Position numbers and translations under genes: made by a program. A stretch of 64,000 nt of DNA. It comes from an uncultured Clostridia bacterium (GTDB taxonomy: Bacteria > Bacillota > Clostridia > TANB77 > CAG-508). The stretch spans positions 954 to 64,953 of the forward strand of contig CALXND010000001.1 in assembly GCA_944389655.1 (NCBI GenBank), written 5' to 3'. Of the stretch, positions 97 through 55,135 are shown piece by piece. How positions within the stretch are numbered: position 1 is the first letter of the stretch; the number at the start of each line of letters is the position of its first letter. The notes under the pieces were generated by a model. That model worked only from the letters and a program-made list of their open reading frames with translations. It was not told the origin of the DNA and ran no database searches.

Positions 97-2052
97 TTAT
101 AAGTTCCCCTCAAGTTCTTTTATTTTATCTCTTAATTCTGCTGCCTTTTCAAATTCCATATTTGCTGCATATTTAAGCATTTCATCAGTTAATTTGTTTA
201 TTACATCTTCAATAGTTTCATCTTTACCAATATTGTATTTAGTTTCCGCTTCTTCTATAATACTTGCCTTAATAGAATCTCTAACAGATTTCTGAATAGT
301 TTTTGGTGTAATTCCATGTGCTTCATTATATTCCTGCTGAATTCGTCTTCTTCTATTCGTCTCAGAAATTGCTTTTTCCATAGATTCTGTCAGTTCATCT
401 GCATACATTATAACTTTTCCATCAGTATTTCTTGCTGCACGTCCAATTGTTTGTATTAATGAACGTTCTGAACGAAGAAATCCTTCCTTATCAGCATCCA
501 AAATTGCAACCAAAGAAACTTCTGGAATATCCAGACCTTCTCTTAAAAGATTAATTCCAACCAGCACGTCAAATTCTCCTAGCCTTAAAGAACGAATTAT
601 TTCCATTCTTTCCAAAGCTTTAATATCTGAATGCATATATCTTACCTTTATATCAATTCCAGCTAAGTAGGCAGTTAAATCTTCTGCCATTTTTTTAGTT
701 AGAGTAGTAACTAAAACTCTTTCGTTCTTTTCTACTCTTTGTCTTATTTGTTCTATTAAATCATCTATTTGATTTTCAACAGGTTTAACATCTATTTTAG
801 GATCTAGTAATCCTGTAGGTCTTATAATTTGTTCTACAACATTTTCTTTTGAGTGTTCCTTCTCATAATCTGCTGGTGTTGCACTTACAAAAATAACTTG
901 ATTAATTCTTTCCTCAAACTCATTAAATTTTAGCGGTCTATTATCAAAAGCAGACGGCAACCTAAATCCATATTTTACCAAAGATTCTTTTCTTGCTCTA
1001 TCTCCATTATACATTGCTCTTACCTGTGGAATAGTAGCATGTGATTCATCTATTAATAGTAGAAAGTCTTTTGGGAAATAATCAAAAAGAGTAAATGGCG
1101 CACTTCCTGGCTCTCTACCACTAATATGTCTAGAATAGTTTTCTATTCCTTGGCAAAAACCTGTTTCCTTCATCATTTCTATATCAAAGTTTGTCCTCTC
1201 CTCTATTCTTTGTGCTTCAATTAATTTTCCGTTATCTTTAAAATATTTTATTCGTTCTTGCAACTCTTCTTCTATAGTGTGTATTGCTCTTTCCATTTTA
1301 TCTTGAGTTGTAACATAATGAGAATTTGGGAATATCATAACATGATTTCTTGTAGCAATTACTTTGCCTGTCAATGGATTTATTTCAGAAATTTTTTCTA
1401 TCTCATCTCCCCAGAATTCTACTCTTATTGCACTTTCACTCTCATCAGATGGATATATTTCCAAAATATCTCCCTTTGCTCTAAAAGTACCTCTTTTGAA
1501 GTCTAGCTCATTTCTGCTATACTGCATTGTAACTAGCTTTTTCATTATTTCGTTTCTTTCTTTTTGCATACCAGGTCTTAATGAAACAATCATGTGTTCG
1601 TAATCAATTGGATCACCTAGTCCATATATGCATGACACAGATGCAACAATTATTACATCTTTTGTCTCAAACAAAGCAGCTGTAGCAGAGTGACGTAATT
1701 TATCTATTTCGTCATTAATAGAAGCATCTTTTTCTATGTATGTGTCCGATGATGCTATATATGCTTCTGGCTGATAATAATCGTAGTATGACACAAAATA
1801 CTCAACATTGTTTTCTGGGAAAAACTCTTTGAATTCACTATATAATTGCCCTGCTAATGTCTTATTATGGGCTAAAACAAGTGTTGGTTTTTGTACTTTT
1901 TGTATTATATTTGCCATCGTAAATGTTTTTCCAGAACCTGTAACACCAAGTAATGTCTGATATTTCTTACCTTCCATAACTCCTTTTGATAAATATTCAA
2001 TTGCCTGTGGCTGGTCGCCTGTTGGTTTATATTCTGAATGTAATTTAAACAT
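97..2052 (-). CDS. uvrB: Excinuclease ABC subunit B (UvrB), full length, 651 aa
   Basis: Translation begins [21 protein letters not shown], has the P-loop GVTGSGKT and helicase-like motifs, and is of UvrB length. Stop codon is TAA. Confidence 0.95.
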
Positions 2053-2410
2053 TTCTACCTATACTCCTTAAATTATAATCTCTATTAACCTAAAATTAGT
2101 GTAATTGCTTTAAAAACTTATCATTTTTTCGTGTAATTTATATGCAAAACCTCCGATTTTTTCATGATTTTTAGTAGCTTTTAGTAACATAATATACCTT
2201 TACGCGAATTGGGTCACAAACTTTATTTTTTTAAACTATTTAACACTAAATAAAATTATTTAATATTAAATAATTTAAACATATTATTTATATCATATTT
2301 TGGGTAAAAATACAATAAATTCCACATCTTATTACCATAAGATATATTAAATTTTTTCTAAAGCAAAAAAGAATGATAATCAATATTATATCATTCTTCT
2401 TGTATTTTCT

Positions 2411-2446
2411 GTAATTTCTTGGTCGTTTTTTCGACCAAGAAATTAC
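2411..2446. terminator. Perfect 15-bp stem hairpin (gtaatttcttggtcg / loop tttttt / cgaccaagaaattac) downstream of the minus-strand HAD-fusion gene pair
   Basis: Perfect palindrome read from the sequence. Its position fits a bidirectional terminator after the minus-strand operon ending near 2700. Confidence 0.6.
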
Positions 2447-2699
2447 TTTAATATTTTCCAATTTCCCTTTTTAGTAGATCCCTCTCTTGTTATTATATTA
2501 TTTTCTTTCAAAACCGCTATATGATATTTTACTTTTTCATTTATTACTTGGCTATTATTAATATCTAATTTTGTGCTGTCTAAAATAAAATCTACTTTAT
2601 GCTTTTCTAATATATTTAATAAATTTTCTCCAGTTTCTAAATTGTCTCTTTGTAATAAAGTTTTCTACCATTTTTCAATTAATTCCGTGCTCTTTTCTA

Positions 2700-3335
2700 A
2701 ATAAAATTATTAATAATATTTAATAGCTCATCAAAATTCTTGCACGATTTACAATTTTTAAAACTATTATGCATGCTAATAAATTCAAAATTACAATTTT
2801 TAGCAAATTCATAATCAGTATATGAATCTCCAATAACAATTGAATCATTTGATATTTCATCATTTATATCTTTTTCTATTATATCAACAACTTTAGAATT
2901 GGGTTTCTTTATATCATTTAGTGAATAATCCCTATAAAATATATATTCAAACTTTTCTGTTAGGTTATATTCTTTTAATATAAACTCTATCTACTTAGGA
3001 CTTGAATTAGAAATCATAATTAAAGGTATCTTACAATTTTCAATAAAAGAAATGGCATCATCTTCTATTACAATTTGTTTATTTTTATATTTTTTGTAAT
3101 ATTCTATAAATTCTACTTCACTAAAATTCTCGTACCATTTCTCATACTCTTTTTCATTAATTCCTAAAAGTTTTAATCTTGTATTTCTACTTTTAAAATC
3201 ATTATTATTATAAATTTCATCTGGATTAGCTACATTATTATACTCTAGCCATTTTAACATAACAGATTTTAATCTATTATCATACTTGTGAATAGTGATG
3301 GTATCTTCTAAATCTATTAAAATATACTTACTCAA
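2700..3335 (-). pseudogene. HAD-superfamily hydrolase (phosphatase-like) interrupted by an in-frame TAG at 2991-2993
   Basis: The 2991..3335 ORF (MSKYILIDLEDTI, HAD motif I D-x-D-x-T, then ISNSS) continues in the same frame after the amber codon as IEFILKEYNLTEKFEYIF...SIVIGDSYTD (HAD motif IV) ending DELLNIINNFI*, by manual translation. There is no Met near the downstream part, so it is not a separate gene. Confidence 0.55.
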
Positions 3336-5532
3336 AATATCCCTCTTGAAGCTTTCTACCTATAGTACATCCCACATTATGTTTTTTTAATTTTTCCATT
3401 TCTTCTTTTGTACTAATACCACCAACACAATTAAATATTTTCTTAGTTAATTTTGAGTATTTTATAGCATTATCCAGATCTCCACCTGAAGCCTTACCAT
3501 CATGTTCTACTGAAACATAGTTAAATTCAGAACAATAGGGTTCAAATAGTTTTATTTTCTCTGGAATATTAACAACAGTATTTGTTCTTCTATCAATACT
3601 ATCTAATCCTACAATGATTTTTTCAGGTTCAAAATCTTTAAGCAACTCTGGAGTTGCATGAGTACCTATAATTACTTTTTCAGCCCCCATATCTAATAGC
3701 TTTTGTATTTCTTCTTTTTTTCTAATACCTCCACCAACACGAACCTTTTTTATTTTCATAATCTCTCTAATAATTTCTAAACTTTGACTCTCTCCATAAA
3801 ATCTATCTAAATCAATTATATTTACTTTTGGATAATCTCTAATAATACTTATCGCCTTTTGTATTGGATATTTTTCTAAATATCTAATTTTTTTATTCAT
3901 TATATCCATGCTTAAAACAAAATTAGAATCATACTTTACTAATGAATCAAATGAAATATTATTCATTTCACAAATACTTTTTCCTCTATTATAAAGTAAT
4001 TCTATATCATCTAAAAATTGATTTTGAAATCCATAACTTCTGAGTTTTTTAATATAATCTTTATGATTATTACAAAGTGTACATACTAAATCATCAGTTG
4101 TAGTATGATGGCGAGTAGATACATAAGTTTTATAATCTATATTCTCTAAAATCGAAAAATCTTTATTTTTATCCATATATTCATAGCTGATTTCTAGTGT
4201 TCCTGTTTTAACGTTTATATTTTTTTTAGTAAATATTTCTTTTAATATAATTAACGTTTGACCTGTACCTATATTACCGTCAAATATTTCAATATTGCTT
4301 GGAAAGCTATTATTTATGCTAATATTATTAAGAGTTATTTTTCCTTCATCATATAATTGTTTCATATTTTGATCATGTACACCAAATTTTACATATGAAT
4401 AATCTGTACCATGCAAAATTTTAAAAAATGGGCCAATTAAAATCGCAGAATATAAAGGACAAACAATATGATTAGCATCATGAATATTAGATATTGTCTT
4501 ATAAAGTAACATTTTATGGTCACCCTCAATTAATCTATTCTCAACATAAACATCATTATCAGTTTTTTGTAATGAAAAACGTGGAGTATCAATTACTTTA
4601 TTTCTTAAACACTCTATGATATTTTTAACATCTTCTTCCATACATTTTTGAGAAACATCAATATTATTAATTTCTCTATTTAATGCTCTTTTATAATCTT
4701 CATAAAAAATTCGGTAACTAGCATTTAACATATATTCACAAACGATAAATGCCTTTTTAATTTCTAATGGAAATAATTTTTTCAAATTTTCTCTAAAATC
4801 AACTAATTCATTATAAGTTTTTTTTGCATAATATTCATTTGATCTACTTACAAATAAACCATCATTAATTTTACTAACTAAATTTTCTATATTTTCTGAA
4901 TTATTTAATTTAATTAATCCTAGATAATCAAAATCATTTTCTTTTAATAAATCATCATTTTCTTCAATAATTTTCTTAGATTTCGTATTAATACTCTTAA
5001 ACTTATCAGTAGTAGCCCATGCTAGATGACTTAAACAATGCTTAACTTTTTCTTTTCTTAACAACTCCTTGTCTGGATTAACTCCTAATATGTTATAAAA
5101 TAATTCTATTTTTTCTTTTGTATCTAACACATGAATTTCCAAAGCACTATAATCAACTTCTGGAATATCATATCTTGAACAACAAAAGTCTATAAAATAA
5201 ATTTCATCATTATAATATAAAATATTTTCTTTATGAAGATCTCCATGTACGAATACTTTCCCATCTCTAATATGACTATGAATTTTTTTTATGGCATTGG
5301 CTAATTTTTCAACAATTTCATCAGTAATCTCTATTTCATTTAAAGTTTTCCCCTTGATTTTTTCTATTATAATTGTGTTTGTATTATCATCACACTCAAT
5401 AAATTTGGGAATATTTTCTTTTAAAAGGCTATATGCATATTTTTCATTTTCATACATACCGTTGCTTTCTTTAACAATTTTAATTATATTATTATTATCT
5501 TCATCAATGTAATTAATTCTTCTTATCCCCAT
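3328..5532 (-). CDS. Multidomain protein: N-terminal small kinase-like domain (HGDLHKENIL...YFIDF), central PRTase-like domain (IEIFDGNIGTGQTLIIL), C-terminal HisA/HisF-like (beta-alpha)8 barrel (VRVGGGIRKKEEIQKLLDMGAEKVIIGT and CVGGISTKEEMEKLKKHNVGCTIG)
   Basis: Motifs read directly from the translation. The start is placed at MGIRRINY because GGAGGT lies 5 nt upstream; the longer track ORF starts at MALCAKRSDGMEV. Overlaps the HAD gene by 8 nt, so they are probably co-transcribed. Confidence 0.65.
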   Translation of the reverse strand: MGIRRINYIDEDNNNIIKIVKESNGMYENEKYAYSLLKENIPKFIECDDNTNTIIIEKIKGKTLNEIEITDEIVEKLANAIKKIHSHIRDGKVFVHGDLHKENILYYNDEIYFIDFCCSRYDIPEVDYSALEIHVLDTKEKIELFYNILGVNPDKELLRKEKVKHCLSHLAWATTDKFKSINTKSKKIIEENDDLLKENDFDYLGLIKLNNSENIENLVSKINDGLFVSRSNEYYAKKTYNELVDFRENLKKLFPLEIKKAFIVCEYMLNASYRIFYEDYKRALNREINNIDVSQKCMEEDVKNIIECLRNKVIDTPRFSLQKTDNDVYVENRLIEGDHKMLLYKTISNIHDANHIVCPLYSAILIGPFFKILHGTDYSYVKFGVHDQNMKQLYDEGKITLNNISINNSFPSNIEIFDGNIGTGQTLIILKEIFTKKNINVKTGTLEISYEYMDKNKDFSILENIDYKTYVSTRHHTTTDDLVCTLCNNHKDYIKKLRSYGFQNQFLDDIELLYNRGKSICEMNNISFDSLVKYDSNFVLSMDIMNKKIRYLEKYPIQKAISIIRDYPKVNIIDLDRFYGESQSLEIIREIMKIKKVRVGGGIRKKEEIQKLLDMGAEKVIIGTHATPELLKDFEPEKIIVGLDSIDRRTNTVVNIPEKIKLFEPYCSEFNYVSVEHDGKASGGDLDNAIKYSKLTKKIFNCVGGISTKEEMEKLKKHNVGCTIGRKLQEGYFE

Positions 5533-5649
5533 AATAACCTCCATTCCGTCGCTACGCTTGGCACAAAGTGCCATGAAAAATCTTTATTTTCTGGGTTAAC
5601 GACTATTTTTATTTATTAAGTTTCCATAACATGATATAATATCTCCCAG

Positions 5650-7190
5650 AATATATAAATTAACTACAGAGCACGGGGAGGTGAGTAGAATATTATCTCA
5701 ACCTCATTTGGGTAAAAATCCGCATAATAACAGGTGTCGAATATCTTTTCAAGTACAAATAAGTGGCGCTTCTAAGCCTGCACACTAATCATTGTTAAAC
5801 AAATTCTCTGTTTAGTGCTAGATATTCAGTCAATGTTTATATATTCTAAAATTCATTTTTAGGAAGTATATACCAATGTTAAAAATTGTATATCCTATTT
5901 GTTGTGGCGTCGATGTCCACAAGAGGTTTATTGTTGCAACCATTGCATTTACCAATGATAAAAATATCACTTCTTATATTACAAAAAGATTTGATACTTA
6001 CAACGAAGACCTTGAAATATTTAAAGATTGGCTTCTTGAACACAACTGTAAAGATGTTTGCATGGAATCTACCGGCAAGTACTATATTCCTATTTACAAC
6101 GTTTTAGAAGATTATGTTCATGTTATCGTAGCTAATCCTAAATATGTCAAGGCCATTCGTGGTAAAAAAACTGATAAGAAAGACTCTGTTTGGATTGCTG
6201 ACTTATTCAAGCATGACTTAGTTCCTGGAAGTTATATTCCACCTAAGCCTATCAGAAAATTACGTGAATTGTTTCGTTATCGTTTTAAATTAGTGAACAA
6301 CCGTACTTCTGAAAGAAACCGTTTACAAAATTGTTTAACTGTTTCAAATATCCAATTAGCTTCTGTTCTTACCGACATGGCAGGTAAATCTGCTCAAGCT
6401 ATTATTAATTATATCACAACTTGTGACACTTTTGATATAGATTATTGCAAATCTTTATTAAAAGGTTCTGCTAAATCAAAAGCTGATGATGTAATAAAAG
6501 CCATTGTTGGATATTCTATTAGTGATGAACAATCTACTAAAATTGATGTATGCACAAAACATCAGAAGAATTTGGATGAACATATTCAAGATGTTCAAGA
6601 TAAAATTTATGAGTTAGCAAAACCTTATCAAAAACAAATTGATCACATTTGTACTTGCCCTGGTTTCAGTAAAGACTCAGCTATTTATACTATAGATGAA
6701 ATTGGTGTTTATATGACAGCTTTTAAATCAGCTAAACATCTTTGCTCTTGGGCTGGTCTTACACCTCAAAATAATGAAAGTGCTGGTAAGAAAAAGTCTG
6801 TACATATCAGTAGAGCAGGTGTTTATCTTAAACCACTTCTCATAGAATGTGTAAACAATGCCATTAAGAAAAAGGATAATCCATATTTTAAAAATAAATA
6901 TGATAGAATTAAAAAACATCGAGGTCACAAAAGAGCTATTGTTGCTATATCAAGAATGATGCTTACTTGTGTCTATCACATGCTTTTAAAAGATGAAGAT
7001 TTCAATCCTTGTGATTTAGATTACACCGAAATACCAGAAGAAGTTTTTGAAAATCGCAAACAAAAATACATCGACAGTGCAATTTTCTTACTTCAAAAAC
7101 AAGGCTTTACAATTACCAAAGATGATGTTATTTATGCAACTAAATAAACCTATTTATTAAATTAATTTAATATTTTTTTACACAGTAGTA
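5650..7190 (+). mobile_element. IS110-family insertion sequence (boundaries approximate)
   Basis: Carries an IS110-type transposase gene preceded by ~250 bp of leader with GC-rich structured segments typical of this family. IS110 elements lack clear terminal inverted repeats, so the ends cannot be fixed by eye. Confidence 0.5.
5876..7147 (+). CDS. IS110-family transposase (DEDD-type), 423 aa
   Basis: N-terminus MLKIVYPICCGVDVHKRFIVATI and the C-terminal region with AGLTPQNNESAGKKKS...HRGHKRAIVAISRMML are characteristic of IS110/IS1111-family transposases. Confidence 0.9.
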   Translation: MLKIVYPICCGVDVHKRFIVATIAFTNDKNITSYITKRFDTYNEDLEIFKDWLLEHNCKDVCMESTGKYYIPIYNVLEDYVHVIVANPKYVKAIRGKKTDKKDSVWIADLFKHDLVPGSYIPPKPIRKLRELFRYRFKLVNNRTSERNRLQNCLTVSNIQLASVLTDMAGKSAQAIINYITTCDTFDIDYCKSLLKGSAKSKADDVIKAIVGYSISDEQSTKIDVCTKHQKNLDEHIQDVQDKIYELAKPYQKQIDHICTCPGFSKDSAIYTIDEIGVYMTAFKSAKHLCSWAGLTPQNNESAGKKKSVHISRAGVYLKPLLIECVNNAIKKKDNPYFKNKYDRIKKHRGHKRAIVAISRMMLTCVYHMLLKDEDFNPCDLDYTEIPEEVFENRKQKYIDSAIFLLQKQGFTITKDDVIYATK

Positions 7191-7717
7191 AATTTTTAAA
7201 ATTTTAACCGCTACTGTTATTAATCATGCTCTTTTTTAATTTTTCTTTTTTCACACTAACCTCCTCTTTTTTAAAATTAATCATAATATTCACTTGTTTC
7301 ATTTGTAAAATCATTTACTACAAATAATACTAGATTGATTTTTTGTATTACGTTTCATCTGTTAGTGTTAATAATAATTTTAGAAAAACAATTGCTAGTT
7401 TTTTTAGAACCATATATTACAACGAATTTTTGCTCAGATGGAGAAGCAGCAATATTAATGGAAAACTTAGTGCTGTGCGTTTCTTGATTGTTTATTATTT
7501 CAGTATTTCTTTTTCAGTAAGCAATCTAGGTGATTTTATAATTTTGTATTCCGCTTTATTATCCTCAAGTGGATTTACACAAATTTGGTCACAAACTTTT
7601 TTGTTCATTTAGGTTTATTTAGTTTTTTTAGGGTTATTTCGTCATTTTTTCTCAAACTAATTAAAACTAAAAGAGTCTAAAAGTGCCTATTTAAAGCCAT
7701 TCTTGAGAGTGGTCATA

Positions 7718-8072: not shown

Positions 8073-8249
8073 CTAGCTATTTTCGGTGCTTCTATTTGCT
8101 ATTTCTATAGCTTTTGTAACTATATTACCACATGTTTTTGATGGTACATTTCCCCATCCTCCGTCTTGTTTTACTTGATCAAAAACACCTAGTTCCTTAG
8201 CAATTTCCTCTCTCAATTTATCAGAAATAATAGTTTTATGATTAGACAT
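8073..8249 (-). CDS. Alpha/beta-type small acid-soluble spore protein (SASP), 58 aa
   Basis: MSNHKTIISDKLREEIAKELGVFDQVKQDGGWGNVPSKTCGNIVTKAIEIA matches the two conserved SASP blocks (EIA.ElGV... and G.vGGeiTKrlv-like). Start is set at MSN with AGGGAGGT 6 nt upstream; the track ORF is longer. Confidence 0.85.
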   Translation of the reverse strand: MSNHKTIISDKLREEIAKELGVFDQVKQDGGWGNVPSKTCGNIVTKAIEIANRSTENS

Positions 8250-8562
8250 AACTGTTACCTCCCTAAAATCAATCTTTAAGATTATACAATTTTTCAATTC
8301 TTATTTATGAGTAATAATTTTAAATAAAGTTAATTATTCTTAAATTTACAAATTAAAACTTCTATTTTTTTGATTTATCCACACATAAATTCTATAAAAA
8401 TGAAAAATCGCTTTTAATCGGATATTCTAATTAAAATTATTTTGTGTACAATAATTTATAATATTTATTATAATATCCGTCATTATTATTTTAACCTTTT
8501 ATAGAAAAAATATTTTTTTATTTTATAGAAAATTTAACAATTTTTTCCACGCAAAAATTTTA

Positions 8563-8583
8563 GACGCCTCTAGGTGAGGCTTC
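8563..8583 (-). terminator. Putative terminator hairpin (gacgcctc-taggt-gaggcttc) after the 8637..9002 gene
   Basis: An imperfect GC hairpin followed by a T-rich tract on the minus strand. Confidence 0.4.
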
Positions 8584-8636
8584 TATTTTTCTTGCAAGAT
8601 ACTTCTTGCAGTTTACTTATTTTCTGATGTCACTCC

Positions 8637-9002
8637 TCATTCTTCTCCTTTTGTTAATAATTCATGTTTTGGTACATAAATAATTGCAATTAGTGTATTG
8701 CTATTATGCTTAACGGTTTGGATGTATTTTTCCTTTGCATGCATTATTGAGATTTTAACACAGTTGCAATCTCTTGATTTAGATTCGTCAGCTATTACTT
8801 CAAGATACTCTATTTCTTGATTTTCTAATAACGTTTTAACATCCTGCTTTGAAGGTAAATATACTTGAAAAGCTTCCCAATCAATATCTTCGCAGCATAT
8901 TGATTTCATGCACTCATCGATTAATATCTCCAAATTATTCCGTTCTTCTTTTTCCAGCTCCTCTAAGATTTCTTCAATCCTAATAGTCTTGCTTTCCTTC
9001 AT
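8637..9002 (-). CDS. Hypothetical Cys-containing protein, 121 aa
   Basis: Uninterrupted ORF in the dominant orientation. No motif recognised. Confidence 0.45.
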   Translation of the reverse strand: MKESKTIRIEEILEELEKEERNNLEILIDECMKSICCEDIDWEAFQVYLPSKQDVKTLLENQEIEYLEVIADESKSRDCNCVKISIMHAKEKYIQTVKHNSNTLIAIIYVPKHELLTKGEE

Positions 9003-9122
9003 AGTGTTTTCCTCCTTAGAAAATAAGTTTTATAAAATATACAACTTAGTATATAATTAATTTTATCATTTTAAATGAGTTATGTCAATCTTGTGCAACT
9101 TTCTATTTATTCATTATATAAT

Positions 9123-9680
9123 TTACCCTATCTTTTCAATATCAATCCTTGCATTTTCATATTCTACATCTTCAAGAGATAAACCTCCAAGTTGTAATAC
9201 ATCGCCTGCATTTAGTCTTAATATAACAGTAGCAGTTAAAGTATATCTATTATTTACTATTTCCTCCGAAAGAACTGCTCCTTCATTTAAAGTATCTGTT
9301 TGAGGAACATTATTAACCAATAATATTGCATTAAAATTAAATCTTCCATCCACTGCTTGGTCTACCCCTGTAAGACTATAAGAAATTTGATAAATTCCAT
9401 CTTCATTTATATTAATTTGACTTGTTCCAGGAGTATGAGTTAGTGCTGTTCCTTCTTCTATTTGATTTTCACTAAAATTTATAATAACATTGCCTTCTGA
9501 TGTATTGTCACCAGGCCTTGCAACTGCCACTAAAATATCTTTTTGCACATTTGGATTATTCATACTAATAAATATTATAATCGCAATTACCAAAAATATA
9601 AGAGTAAAAATTGAAATAACCTTTACCATATTACAAATATTGCACTTATTGTACTTATCACACTTCATATCACACTTCAT
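9123..9680 (-). CDS. Membrane-anchored protein with Cys-rich N-terminus (MKCDMKCDKYNKCNICN), one TM helix and a C1q/TNF-like, BclA C-terminal-domain-like, beta-sandwich domain
   Basis: The C-terminal segment (IYQISYSLTG...FNFNAILLVNNVPQ...TLTATVILRLNAGDVLQL) resembles the globular C-terminal domain of exosporium BclA-type proteins, but there are no collagen-like GXX repeats. The hydrophobic stretch VISIFTLIFLVIAIIIFI is the anchor. Confidence 0.5.
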   Translation of the reverse strand: MKCDMKCDKYNKCNICNMVKVISIFTLIFLVIAIIIFISMNNPNVQKDILVAVARPGDNTSEGNVIINFSENQIEEGTALTHTPGTSQININEDGIYQISYSLTGVDQAVDGRFNFNAILLVNNVPQTDTLNEGAVLSEEIVNNRYTLTATVILRLNAGDVLQLGGLSLEDVEYENARIDIEKIG

Positions 9681-9725
9681 AAAAAACCTCCTCTTTACAT
9701 ATTTTATGAGGTTTTTAAATAAAAA

Positions 9726-9829
9726 GTGAGCAAAAGGGGTCAGACCCTAATTGCGCAAAAAAGCTTGTATCTCTTGCTATTACTGTATTATAGCATTTGC
9801 GCAATTAGGGTCTGACCCCTTTTGCTCAC
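9726..9829. repeat. Extended copy of the GC-rich palindrome family: two 34-bp perfect inverted arms (gtgagcaaaaggggtcagaccctaattgcgcaaa / tttgcgcaattagggtctgaccccttttgctcac) flanking a 36-bp spacer
   Basis: Read directly from the sequence. Each arm is itself related to the TTGCGCAAATGGGGTCAGACCCCATTTGCGCAA unit found elsewhere in the window. Confidence 0.85.
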
Positions 9830-9830
9830 T

Positions 9831-10493
9831 TTAAAAGATTATTCCACTTCCATAATCGTGAATTTCTAACCCTTTAAAGTCTATTAAATTCAAATTGTAT
9901 TTTTTTAAGTGCTCACAAATTTTTTCTCTATTGTTTAATTTTGAACCATCTCCAAATAATACAAAGTTATTGTCAAATACTAATGTTGCGCCACCTATAA
10001 AGCCATGCATTTTTGATTCTTCTCCACTTTTTTGAAGCAATTTTATATTGTTCTCTTCTACATATAAAGCATCAATGCCATTGGCTCTTAATACTTTTTC
10101 TATTCCCTTATCTGATGTTATACATGAGTTACTACTTGTTATTGCTATTGAACATTTTACATAGCCTTGTTTTACTAAAATATTAGGTTTTATGCTTTTA
10201 TCTGTATAATCGCTTCCTATTATATTATTTCCTATTTGGCAACAATTATATTTAACATCTTTTGGATATTCTTTTCCTACATTTTCTTGCCCCATTTTAA
10301 AAGAACTATTTTTATATGGAGCATTTGGTGCTGATATAATTTTATTATTTATTTTGCAATAAAATATATCACTATGGCCAGATATTTCTTCGTACACATC
10401 ATCTGATAATGGTAATTTTACTATATTAAAGTGTTTACTTAAATAATTATATTCTTTTTCTCTTATTCGTGTGTCTATTATTAAATTATTCAC
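9831..10493 (-). CDS. Hypothetical protein, 220 aa
   Basis: Uninterrupted ORF ending 2 bp from the palindromic element. No confident family assignment. Confidence 0.5.
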   Translation of the reverse strand: MNNLIIDTRIREKEYNYLSKHFNIVKLPLSDDVYEEISGHSDIFYCKINNKIISAPNAPYKNSSFKMGQENVGKEYPKDVKYNCCQIGNNIIGSDYTDKSIKPNILVKQGYVKCSIAITSSNSCITSDKGIEKVLRANGIDALYVEENNIKLLQKSGEESKMHGFIGGATLVFDNNFVLFGDGSKLNNREKICEHLKKYNLNLIDFKGLEIHDYGSGIIF

Positions 10494-10565
10494 TTTTATC
10501 GTTCCTTTTCAAAGTATTAAATTCTTTTATCTTAAAAAATCCAGATACAAGTAAATTAAACAACA

Positions 10566-11240
10566 TTAAACTCCTGCATTTCCACTTAGCATAAGTCCAG
10601 CATACGCTGTTGAATATTCTGCTGTTATTTCTTTTACAATTTGTTTTTCTTCTTCCATTAAGTTTCGACCTAGATGAGACATTCTCTTATCTAATTTATG
10701 TGTCATTTTAGCACATTCTTTAAGTTCTTTTTTTACACCTTTTGGAATTTGTTTATTATATTTATAATTAATTTTGTGTTCTAAGCTTGCCCAAAAATCC
10801 ATCGCCATTGTTCTTATTTGAATTTCTACCTTTACCTCAATTGTTCCTACTGATAAACTTACAGGAACAGATAATATTAAGTGGTAACTAGAGTATCCAC
10901 TTTCCTTTGGTGTTGTAACATAATCTTTCTTTTTTAGTATGGTAAGATCTGGCATGTTTTCTAGCATTTCTACTATTTTAAATATATCTGGTATAAATGA
11001 GCATATTATCCTTATACCTGCAACATCATTAATAGTTTTTACTAAGTTTTCGTATGTTGGGTCTAAACCTTTCTTTTTTAGCTTTTTGTTAATACTTTCT
11101 TTGCTCTTAATTCTACTACTTACATGTTCTATTGGATTGTATTTATGTAGTGTTTTAAATTCGTTATTTATAATATCTATTTTTGTTTCCATTTGTTTTA
11201 ACGCAGCTGTATACATAAGTGTAAGTCTCTTATATTCCAT
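10566..11240 (-). CDS. relQ: Small alarmone synthetase (RelA/SpoT-domain GTP pyrophosphokinase, RelQ/YjbM-like), 224 aa
   Basis: Synthetase-domain motifs GIRIICSF, EIQIRTMAMDFWASLEHKINYKY and a C-terminal helix, at the size of single-domain SAS proteins. Confidence 0.8.
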   Translation of the reverse strand: MEYKRLTLMYTAALKQMETKIDIINNEFKTLHKYNPIEHVSSRIKSKESINKKLKKKGLDPTYENLVKTINDVAGIRIICSFIPDIFKIVEMLENMPDLTILKKKDYVTTPKESGYSSYHLILSVPVSLSVGTIEVKVEIQIRTMAMDFWASLEHKINYKYNKQIPKGVKKELKECAKMTHKLDKRMSHLGRNLMEEEKQIVKEITAEYSTAYAGLMLSGNAGV

Positions 11241-11403
11241 ATCTTCTTGCAGTTTATCTTCCTTTTTAACTACTATATCTTCTATGGCTAATCAACTCCC
11301 TTCGTATATATTTATACACCACTTTTATGTCCATTATGTGTAAATTTGCTGTTTATTTAAAGTTTTTATATTTTTTAATTCATGACTTATAAAGTTTTAT
11401 ACT

Positions 11404-11594
11404 AGTCATAGTTAATATATTTAAAATTTGTTTCAAATATGTCGGTCAAGATGATTTTCAAACTAATTCTAAAGAAATTTTTGCAGCGCCCTCAACAAAC
11501 TTGAGATTCCCTACAAAAATTTCTCAAGAATTAGTATTTTCAAATCACATTCCATTCCATATTCTCACAAATTTTAAATATATTAACTATGACT
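11404..11594. mobile_element. MITE-like element, copy 1 (191 bp, 27-bp perfect TIRs agtcatagttaatatatttaaaatttg / caaattttaaatatattaactatgact)
   Basis: Same element found at 28274..28469 (inverted orientation) and 60433..60622. It has a conserved GC-rich core, ttgcagcgccctca...gattccctacaaaaatttctcaagaattagta. Confidence 0.75.
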
Positions 11595-11631
11595 TTAGCT
11601 AAAGGAACTTTGTAAGTCGTGGATTTTAGTA

Positions 11632-12816
11632 TTAAAACGTATCTTCTAAATTTTTCTCTTTTAATTTATTGTTTGTGTTTTCTTCAATTATCGCATACAA
11701 AATTGAAACTACTGGAAGTCCTACAATCATACCCATTATGCCAAATAAGCTTCCTCCAATTGTAATTGCAACCAGCACCCAAATGCTTGGAAGACCAATA
11801 TTTTTTCCTACAACATGTGGATAAATTAGGTTTCCTTCTACTTGTTGAAGTACTATTATAAATAAAATAAATATTAATGCTTTAATTGGGTCGATTGCTA
11901 CTATTAGTACTGCACCAATAAATCCAGATATAAATGCTCCAACTATTGGAATAAATGCTGTTATTGCAGTAAGTGCTCCTATTGGCCCTGCATATGGAAT
12001 TCCTAAAATAAACATACCTATAGCACATAGTGAGCCTAGTATTACTGCTTCTTTTGCTTGCCCTGTTAAAAAGCTTCTAAATGAATCTCTAGCAAGTCTG
12101 CTAACTTTTATAATATAGTCTGCTTTTTCTTTTGTGCAACGCGCATATATAAATTTCTTTGCTTGCAATTTTAGATTTTCCTTATTTGCTAAAATATATA
12201 CTGCAAATATTATTGATATAAAGAAGTTTACAATATTTGATAATAGGCTAGATACTTGGTTTATTGTGATATTTAATACATCTTTAGATAAATTCATTAT
12301 TCCATTTTTTAATGCTTCTGTATCTATATGTATATTTTGTATAAAATTATTTATATCTGGAAATCTTTGCGTAATATCAATTGCAAAATTTTTGGCATCT
12401 TCTAAAAAATTTGGTATATTGCTTATTAAGTTTTTTATAACCTCTACAAATTGTGGAATTATTAATACTAAAATTATAGTTATTACAGCTATTATTGTAA
12501 TTATTGAAAGTGCTATAGAAAATGGTCTTTTTATTTTGTTTGTTCTTGTTACATTACTTTTTCCATCTGGTTTTACAGTTTTAGAGCTTTTATCGGCGTT
12601 TTTCTTTCTTGACTTGAATATTTTGTTTTCATATATGCTCATAAATATATTTAAAATAAATGCTATTGCTAATCCCCATATAAACGGAGAAATAATGTTT
12701 AGGAACTCTTTTACGCCTCCCCATACTGGACCAATGTTTAAAAGTGCTACTAATAAAACTATAGCTATTACAACAATTTTTATAATTTGCTTTGTATTTT
12801 CTTTATCTAGCTTCAT
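11632..12816 (-). CDS. AI-2E family transporter (PerM/UPF0118-type permease), 394 aa
   Basis: Polytopic membrane protein with the family's large cytoplasmic loop (KENLKLQAKKFIYARCTKEKADYIIKVSRLARDSFRSFLTGQAKEAVILG). Confidence 0.8.
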   Translation of the reverse strand: MKLDKENTKQIIKIVVIAIVLLVALLNIGPVWGGVKEFLNIISPFIWGLAIAFILNIFMSIYENKIFKSRKKNADKSSKTVKPDGKSNVTRTNKIKRPFSIALSIITIIAVITIILVLIIPQFVEVIKNLISNIPNFLEDAKNFAIDITQRFPDINNFIQNIHIDTEALKNGIMNLSKDVLNITINQVSSLLSNIVNFFISIIFAVYILANKENLKLQAKKFIYARCTKEKADYIIKVSRLARDSFRSFLTGQAKEAVILGSLCAIGMFILGIPYAGPIGALTAITAFIPIVGAFISGFIGAVLIVAIDPIKALIFILFIIVLQQVEGNLIYPHVVGKNIGLPSIWVLVAITIGGSLFGIMGMIVGLPVVSILYAIIEENTNNKLKEKNLEDTF

Positions 12817-17311: not shown

Positions 17312-17346
17312 TTTGCGCAAATGGGGTCTGACCCCATTTGCGCAAA
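17312..17346. repeat. GC-rich palindrome copy (tttgcgcaaatggggtctgaccccatttgcgcaaa)
   Basis: Perfect 35-bp palindrome between the flavodoxin-like gene end and the copZ start. Likely terminator hairpin on either strand. Confidence 0.9.
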
Positions 17347-25958: not shown

Positions 25959-25980
25959 ATGCTCTCTCTCCTTTGTTCTT

Positions 25981-26012
25981 TTGCGCAAATGGGGTCAGAC
26001 CCCATTTGCGCA
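25981..26012. repeat. GC-rich palindrome copy (ttgcgcaaatggggtcagaccccatttgcgca)
   Basis: Perfect palindrome read from the sequence, lying between two minus-strand genes. Confidence 0.9.
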
Positions 26013-33397: not shown

Positions 33398-33435
33398 ATG
33401 GTATTGTAATCATTCGTTCTACTGCGTTTTGGAGA

Positions 33436-33467
33436 TTGCGCAAATAGGGTCTGACCCTATTTGCGCA
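33436..33467. repeat. GC-rich palindrome copy (ttgcgcaaatagggtctgaccctatttgcgca)
   Basis: Perfect palindrome, a variant of the family consensus (tagggtctgaccctat). Confidence 0.9.
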
Positions 33468-55102: not shown

Positions 55103-55135
55103 TGCGCAAAAGGGGTCTGACCCCATTTGCGCAAA
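55103..55135. repeat. GC-rich palindrome copy (tgcgcaaaaggggtctgaccccatttgcgcaaa) immediately downstream of polC
   Basis: Near-perfect palindrome read from the sequence. Confidence 0.9.

Follow-up and report, generated by a model that had tools for sequence, protein, structure and literature searches.

A gene fusing kinase, phosphoribosyltransferase and HisA-like domains in a candidate mobile metabolic cassette beside uvrB of an uncultured Clostridia bacterium

What might a bacterium make with a kinase, a phosphoribosyltransferase (PRT) and a HisA-like isomerase joined in one polypeptide and followed by a phosphatase of the HAD superfamily? The question is raised by a locus next to uvrB in contig CALXND010000001.1 of an uncultured Clostridia bacterium, of which a stretch of 64,000 nucleotides (hereafter the window) was analysed. 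The large gene at this locus fuses three enzymes that are encoded elsewhere as adjacent genes in the same order. We give about an even chance to the view that a small mobile metabolic cassette lies here and works by the scheme set out below, and its product is most likely an undescribed, ribose-derived amine compound.

The minus-strand open reading frame of the fusion gene runs from 3328 to 5574, its upstream end at 5574 falling within the end of an IS110 element. Since the start of all full-length relatives, each of 734 residues, coincides with the ATG at 5532, the gene is taken as 3328-5532 (Table 1). The initial annotation had read the product as a fusion of kinase-like, PRTase-like and HisA/HisF-like barrel domains, and all three calls are correct: each is backed by sequence profiles and by structure comparison, and the AF2 model of the full-length protein has a pLDDT of 83. 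The middle and C-terminal regions proved to have PRTase and HisA folds. The domain limits given at that time were roughly right, except that the PRT-homologous part, residues 186-535, is much larger than the proposed ~330-480. The suspicion that this is not a described enzyme also holds, as no NCBIfam equivalog cutoff was reached (HisA 73 vs 229 bits, Bud32 48 vs 125). None of the specific models in Pfam, NCBIfam or PADLOC matched the family, and a literature search for the kinase/PRT/HisA-like architecture found no paper describing it. The sole name given by any source is an automatic ‘ProFAR isomerase’ label from JGI pipelines, carried by a few relatives.

Relatives of the protein are rare. 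The PRT family has 126 representatives among 1.84 billion proteins, and the close family forms 17 clusters at 90% identity among 5.8 billion proteins, with 4 loci in 185,579 species genomes, all of them metagenome-assembled genomes of uncultured Clostridia or Tenericutes. The same parts occur in several arrangements. Kinase, PRT-HisA and HAD are three overlapping genes in L003 and L101, while L006 has a PRT-HisA gene followed by HAD, with no kinase, and L100 a PRT gene followed by a HisA gene. In L014 (206-4360) the order is HisA / PRT / HAD / PurA-like / NUDIX, all translationally coupled. Fusions of HAD with PRT (P0117) and of a LigD 3'-phosphoesterase domain with PRT (P0052) are also found, as are kinase-PRT-HisA proteins with no HAD gene (L001, L098), a PRT-HisA protein with neither kinase nor HAD (L096), and further PRT-HisA fusions (P0019, P0020, P0036, P0141). 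The PRT and the HisA-like barrel form the constant core and the other two are frequent extras; where kinase or HAD is added the order is kinase, PRT, HisA, HAD, apart from the HisA-first order of L014. The functional link that had been proposed between the three domains and the HAD neighbour is strongly supported by these comparisons (L003, L101, L014, L100, P0117), the architecture being conserved in other genomes both as separate overlapping genes and in other states of fusion.

The surroundings of some relatives are informative. The PurA-like protein of L014 is a near-canonical PurA paralogue (390 bits against an equivalog cutoff of 402), and its operon suggests that the acceptor may be a purine nucleotide. 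The fusion gene of L001 belongs to a co-directional cluster, with NUDIX and GNAT genes upstream and, downstream, a sugar-3-dehydrogenase-like GFO/IDH/MocA enzyme, a DegT/PseC-type aminotransferase and an ATP-grasp ligase, a set that would suit later steps in which a keto or amino sugar product is tailored. The PRT-HisA gene of L096 lies on an archaeal contig among genes for the exosome, proteasome-alpha, Rpp14, L24e, S28e and L7Ae. This fusion is 558 residues long (L096 7001-8677), and it is seen again at 4716-6392 of L097 beside the same exosome/proteasome/RNase P/ribosomal-protein cluster.

The C-terminal domain of the fusion protein is a HisA/HisF-type (beta-alpha)8 barrel that scores above the gathering threshold of Pfam His_biosynth. 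It shares with HisA the pair of catalytic Asp residues, on beta1 and beta5, and both phosphate sites (GGGIR / IGT; DG..G / GG / G). An alignment of 14 sequences shows no variation at D543, D644, G600-R604, G623-T624, D678-G684, G704-G705 and G725. The phosphate-site motifs and the Asp on beta5 line up with their counterparts in HisA and PriA, and the Asp on beta1 is placed by its position in the AF2 model. Because both phosphate half-sites of HisA are conserved, the substrate of the barrel may carry two phosphates, as would, for example, a nucleotide or a phosphorylated amino alcohol.

The resemblance to HisA, the JGI label and the best sequence matches in the PDB (HisA and HGPRT) could all be explained by ordinary primary metabolism, that is, by a misread his, trp or purine enzyme in which HisA (or PriA/TrpF) is fused to a purine-salvage PRTase and a kinase. 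This is extremely improbable, as the barrel falls far short of the equivalog cutoffs (73.4 bits vs 228.95 for TIGR00007, 30.5 vs 306 for hisA-trpF (PriA)), there are no his, trp or pur genes nearby, and the family is both very rare in species genomes and horizontally mobile. In addition, the PRT domain carries a helical extension of ~150 residues that is not covered by the solved PRTases it matches, which align with ~120-140 of its 350 residues. As single identities, ‘true HisA’ was rejected on its score and the lack of his genes, and ‘HPRT’ on score cutoffs and genomic context.

The PRT domain has the Rossmann-like core fold of the type I PRT superfamily, and its nearest structures are HGPRT, APRT and PurF. 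A PRPP (phosphoribosyl pyrophosphate) loop was defined as four hydrophobic residues, two acidic residues and xx(T/S)GxT. The consensus in the wider family is DDNxGTGxT, and the fusion protein has IEIFDGNIGTGQT, with one acidic residue only. Pfam PF00156 is matched by 25 of 79 homologues (best 3e-8), and PRTase-fold chains are the only matches of the family profile in the PDB. Compared with viral structures by Foldseek, the PRT model gave no match below E 0.05.

The N-terminal domain shows the HxDxxxxN loop and the downstream metal-binding Asp of the APH / choline-kinase / RIO-Bud32 fold, together with Pfam matches above cutoff. Two relatives have separate kinase genes that are orthologous to this N-terminus (L101, 42% identity, 5e-49; L003, 33%, 5e-18). 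A Bud32 / KEOPS kinase was considered and rejected (48.3 bits vs a cutoff of 125, and no Kae1 neighbour in the window). There is a faint match to Fructosamin_kin (E 0.05), which would suit a locus that salvages, repairs or breaks down pre-formed ribosylamines or Amadori (ribulosamine) compounds, its barrel working in the reverse or repair direction beside a fructosamine/ribulosamine-kinase-like kinase and a phosphatase. A kinase, a phosphatase and an Amadori isomerase do recall the logic of deglycation, and the hosts live anaerobically in the gut, where they meet glycated compounds. This reading is nevertheless very unlikely, as it leaves unexplained the PRPP-binding PRT, which is the most constant partner of the barrel; moreover, the Fructosamin_kin score lies far below its cutoff and neither a transporter nor a deglycase is adjacent.

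The fourth enzyme is encoded by the HAD gene, whose frame overlaps the fusion gene by 8 nt (3328-3335). HAD phosphatases were scored by motifs I (DxDxT), II (S/T), III (K) and IV (GDxxxD), all required in one intact polypeptide. The read-through translation has all four and matches Pfam Hydrolase with 37.7 bits (cutoff 26.4), but an in-frame TAG at 2991-2993 interrupts it at codon 115, so that the product in this genome has at most 114 residues and retains motifs I and II only. The genes of the relatives are intact (209-213 residues). Since all 4 aligned relatives carry TGG (Trp) at this codon, and the nearest of them, L007, differs at just 27 of 639 nt, the TAG is best read as a single G>A nonsense mutation, leaving a pseudogene or a gene for a shortened product. 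A recoded codon was rejected for the same TGG in 4 of 4 relatives and the single G>A change. The co-transcribed HAD phosphatase of the initial annotation was right in type and in the 8-nt overlap; the gene is not intact, the TAG having been overlooked. Fold and motifs identify all four enzymes of the cassette, and their order and coupling are conserved among the relatives.

The following scheme is proposed. The kinase would phosphorylate the acceptor or a precursor of it, a step that is probably optional because some relatives have no kinase. The PRT would then join 5-phosphoribose from PRPP to the acceptor through a nitrogen, which most likely belongs to a primary or exocyclic amine, to give an N-(5-phosphoribosyl)amine. 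The HisA-like barrel would carry out an Amadori rearrangement of this product to a 1-amino-1-deoxy-ribulose-5-phosphate derivative, in the way that HisA, PriA and TrpF follow on from HisG or TrpD, and the HAD enzyme would finally take off the phosphate. A nucleotide acceptor would fit the purine-nucleotide enzymes seen in remote contexts, and a phosphorylated amino alcohol would fit the choline/ethanolamine-kinase-like fold. The product could serve as a specialised metabolite, as a signal or in conflict.

A further clue to the acceptor comes from a remote clade of stand-alone PRTs. A metagenome scan with this clade gave 80 loci, mostly from the human gut, and in 50 of 76 the same-strand gene immediately upstream of the PRT encodes a Phage_30_3/NADAR protein (Pfam Phage_30_3, 1.7e-27). 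The pair occurs in at least 10 different flanking contexts (L016-L091), often with an ITP/XTPase (PF01931) on one side or the other, depending on the context. PDB sequences gave no match to a profile of the NADAR-like neighbour, so its identity comes from Pfam Phage_30_3 and the literature, where no description of this pairing was found. The riboflavin-pathway substrates of YbiA-type NADARs are phosphoribosylamino-pyrimidines. These enzymes cut N-glycosidic bonds in reactive intermediates of that pathway, and AdfN, the gp30.3 protein of T4, is a glycohydrolase of the NADAR family that strips guanine of ADP-ribose (PMC11257639, PMC11543638). In both cases the N-glycosidic bond that is cut leads to an exocyclic amine. 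By analogy, the NADAR and HisA-like partners would both act on ribose at an exocyclic or secondary amine, and this gives indirect support for taking the PRT product as an N-(5-phosphoribosyl)amine and not as a nucleotide bonded through a ring nitrogen. In IMG/VR the remote-clade alignment found one locus, and because a serine recombinase adjoins it, this locus probably lies next to a prophage rather than inside one. Two other remote loci (L078, L080) encode a 796-residue protein with the PRT domain at its C-terminus and an N-terminal region of ~400 residues. Upstream of it are a protein that by eye resembles radical-SAM/SPASM enzymes (CxxxCxxC) and one of 244 residues, and downstream is a NADAR gene.

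Several points weigh against the proposed amine pathway. Every activity assigned to the family is predicted, and one pathway would seem to have no need of both a kinase and a phosphatase unless the two work at different positions. Not all relatives have the full set, HAD being absent from L001, L096 and L098, and the kinase from L006 and L096. The PRPP loop of the fusion protein has D-G where the family has D-D, so its activity is not assured. A single acidic residue at this place does occur in UPRTases. The PRT domain of the fusion protein itself has no match to PF00156 even at E up to 10, and its assignment as a PRTase is transitive, by way of homologues, and structural. Lastly, the counts overstate independence, since a few gut species recur as the source of many of the 76 remote loci.

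The NADAR partner also allows the locus to be seen as a conflict system of the toxin-antitoxin or phage-defence type. The PRT would then be a PRPP-dependent analogue of DarT1 that marks an exocyclic amine of a nucleobase, whether in nucleotides or in nucleic acids, with a phosphoribosyl group, and the mark would be reversed by NADAR in the remote clade or converted and neutralised by the HisA-like barrel and HAD, with the kinase as a regulator. We regard this as a less probable reading, though not a far-fetched one. The NADAR-PRT pairing mirrors DarT1-NADAR (PMC11543638, PMC11257639); both DarTG1 and phage AdfN (T4 gp30.3) concern NADAR and an exocyclic-amine transferase of the ribose-phosphate type, as does the remote clade. 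DarT1, however, is an ADP-ribosyltransferase that uses NAD+, whereas the remote-clade enzyme has a PRTase fold and presumably uses PRPP. The analogy also extends to the remote clade only, where alone an adjacency of the DarTG1 type was seen: the clade of the window has the HisA-like barrel and HAD, and no NADAR-like open reading frame is present in the 64 kb. Purine nucleotides as the target are suggested by the ITP/XTPase beside the pair and by the NUDIX and PurA-like proteins of L014, and P0052 joins the phosphoesterase domain of LigD to a PRT. To our knowledge, however, type I PRTases act on small molecules in every characterised case.

The genomic setting is likewise divided on a conflict function. 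The cassette is mobile and patchy, and relatives lie near serine recombinases (L009, L015, L054), a restriction-modification system (L012), MazE (L003), genes of a type IV secretion system (L001) and Imm5-like/CYTH genes (L101). On the other side, the archaeal copy sits among housekeeping genes and the context of L001 looks biosynthetic. Phage and plasmid collections gave no match in tblastn searches with the PRT domain and with the remote member P0028, plasmids gave none in a megablast search with the cassette, and the close-family alignment found none in IMG/VR. The kinase domain matches TCAD9 and PD-T4-6 weakly; a PADLOC scan returned nothing significant, its lone marginal match being PD-T4-6 (E 0.0045) on the kinase catalytic loop. 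It is unlikely, in our estimate, that the PRT family represents a new reaction class altogether, namely PRPP-dependent phosphoribosylation of the exocyclic amines of nucleobases in nucleotides and possibly nucleic acids. NADAR would here remove the mark and HisA-like isomerases would fix it by Amadori rearrangement before dephosphorylation by HAD, so that the system would be the PRPP equivalent of the NAD-based conflict chemistry of DarT/NADAR, mobile in gut Firmicutes and found also in archaea.

For the preferred reading, a cassette that makes a ribose-derived amine, the nearest known logic is that of HisG...HisA and TrpD-TrpF/PriA, where PRPP-dependent N-phosphoribosylation is likewise followed by a (beta-alpha)8 Amadori isomerase. 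HisG belongs to the ATP-PRT class and TrpD to the TrpD/nucleoside-phosphorylase-type class, both structurally distinct from type I. The cassette differs in having a type I PRT fold, which is fused with a kinase and followed by HAD, and in having no downstream His or Trp enzymes. A second comparison is with the Ter-linked PRTases, whose Pfam models we take to be PRTase_1, PRTase_2 (PF15609) and PRTase_3. The fusion protein matched none of these models, and one remote member reached 18.5 bits with PRTase_2, below its cutoff of 28.8. A prediction by Anantharaman, Iyer and Aravind (2012), recounted in PMC7824862 and PMC5512222, is that the Ter-associated PRTase and HAD module makes a nucleoside-like metabolite. 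From these summaries, both the module and the cassette would be small PRTase and HAD phosphoesterase pathways with a nucleoside-like product, a place on mobile elements and a link to conflict; they mention neither a HisA-like barrel nor a kinase for the Ter module. TerD, TerB, TerC and TelA are not among the neighbours of the cassette, and no Ter genes occur in any locus examined.

Two further groups show looser parallels. Nucleoside-antibiotic pathways combine a PRT with a phosphatase or NUDIX enzyme, as in angustmycin (adenine phosphoallulosyltransferase, PDB 7f06) and tubercidin (TubE PRT, TubG Nudix; PMC6112128). These pathways have no Amadori isomerase, whereas the cassette has no base-biosynthesis genes and is found in gut Clostridia and archaea, not actinomycetes. 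In E. coli, ybiA (NADAR) and ybiB (TrpD2, PRT-like) stand together in the LexA-controlled dinG operon (PMC11125620), but YbiB has a TrpD-type PRT fold and no HisA-like partner. None of the systems compared has this PRT family, the PRT-HisA fusion or the four-part order. The cassette would combine known enzyme folds into an undescribed pathway. If the scheme is correct, it would be a third, independent use of phosphoribosylating an amine and then rearranging it by the Amadori route, hitherto seen only in the making of histidine and tryptophan, and gut anaerobes would carry it as a mobile cassette complete in itself. The cassette would also define an uncharacterised PRTase family, supply a candidate cognate ‘writer’ for the orphan gp30.3-like NADAR group, and point to a metabolite of the ribulosamine type, or a modified base, in the microbiome of the human gut. 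As a Rosetta stone, the fusion shows which four activities to assay jointly.

Table 1. Positions of the features at the fusion-gene locus, numbered from the first nucleotide of the window
Feature	Position	Strand	Evidence or remark
uvrB	97-2052	-	
Replacement uvrB 5' end, island-borne	1691..2052	-	first 89 codons 95.5% identical in protein to L007 copy
Accessory island: HAD pseudogene, fusion gene, IS110; no integrase	2053..7717		between uvrB remnant and intact uvrB
HAD-superfamily phosphatase gene, interrupted	2697..3335	-	TTG start at 3335
Fusion gene, 734 aa (kinase + PRT-like + HisA-like)	3328..5532	-	open reading frame and conserved start of relatives
HisA/PriA-like (beta-alpha)8 barrel, aa 536-734	3331..3927	-	
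Barrel motif TIGRKL	3349-3366	-	
Barrel motif CVGGIS	3412-3429	-	
Barrel motif EHDGKASGGD	3478-3507	-	
Barrel motif VGLDSIDR (D644)	3589-3612	-	
Barrel motif IIGTHA	3655-3672	-	
Barrel motif RVGGGIR	3721-3741	-	
Barrel motif IIDLDR	3802-3819	-	
Barrel motif LSMDIM (D543)	3898-3915	-	
Divergent type I PRT domain, aa 186-535	3928..4977	-	N-terminal helical bundle, then PRT core
PRPP loop IEIFDGNIGTGQT	4255-4293	-	
FGVHDQN loop of PRT domain	4366-4386	-	
LIGPFFK loop of PRT domain	4420-4440	-	
Kinase domain, aa 1-190	4963..5532	-	eukaryotic-like kinase / APH / choline-kinase fold
Kinase metal-binding IDF	within 5185-5199	-	
Kinase catalytic loop HGDLHKEN	5224-5247	-	
IS110-family insertion sequence, 1693 bp	5543..7235	+	GGAGGTTA on both sides
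IS110 transposase	5876-7147	+	DEDD_Tnp_IS110 2.8e-23, Transposase_20 4.1e-14
Displaced uvrB 5' remnant, 88 codons	7718..7984	-	78% DNA identity to first 287-nt region of intact uvrB

The cassette lies between uvrB and the IS110 transposase, as first described, on an island bounded by a duplication of the 5' end of uvrB that is also found in L007. In a blastn comparison with L007 the cassette (2671-5542) is 96.6% identical and ~750 bp adjoining it on each side are ~82% identical, while the rest of uvrB is unmatched. The whole UvrB proteins of the two hosts are 63.5% identical, compared with 95.5% for their first 89 residues. Judged from these sequences, an island without an integrase would have inserted at about codon 88 of uvrB, bringing its own replacement 5' end and displacing that of the host, and the cassette would have moved recently between divergent hosts. 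There is no tRNA available as an integration site. Horizontal acquisition, which the initial annotation had suspected, is supported both by this high identity between hosts with divergent UvrB and by the low G+C content of the cassette (21-25% vs 30-33% in the flanks). Other relatives sit in unrelated sites, some beside large serine recombinases. The island would also illustrate clearly how an element with no integrase can insert in uvrB and supply a replacement 5' end.

The IS110 element is more than a neighbour of the fusion gene, its insertion lying 10 nt upstream of the ATG. The cassette of L007 lacks the element, and the window has this one copy only. The insertion keeps the ribosome-binding site and shifts the region upstream of it by 1.7 kb. 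With IS110 so close to the start and a nonsense codon in the HAD gene, this copy of the cassette is probably decaying or impaired. A promoter scan was at chance level (51 sites vs 47 expected), and Rfam found no riboswitch or other RNA family in the region or in the whole window.

Between the HAD pseudogene and uvrB is a hairpin with a perfect 15-bp stem (GTAATTTCTTGGTCG/CGACCAAGAAATTAC, 2411-2446), at the edge of a segment of ~230 bp (2439-2670) that is missing from the L007 island. A dispersed repeat with the core TTTGCGCAAATGGGGTCWGAC has 7 matches at up to 3 mismatches, where 0.01 are expected. Its copies are at 9723-9759 / 9796-9832, 17312-17346, 25980-26000, 33435-33455 and 55115-55135, with diverged copies near both ends of the island (2180-2230, 7555-7605). 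It looks like a REP-like element, and one instance is a perfect 37-nt inverted repeat that is the source of a spurious MIR405 match in Rfam. The outer neighbours of the island (8073-12816) are ordinary genes of a spore-former, encoding an alpha/beta SASP (8073-8297), a BclA_C-like protein (9123-9680), a DUF6873 protein (9831-10493), a small alarmone synthetase of the RelA_SpoT type (10566-11240) and a transporter of the AI-2E family (11632-12816).

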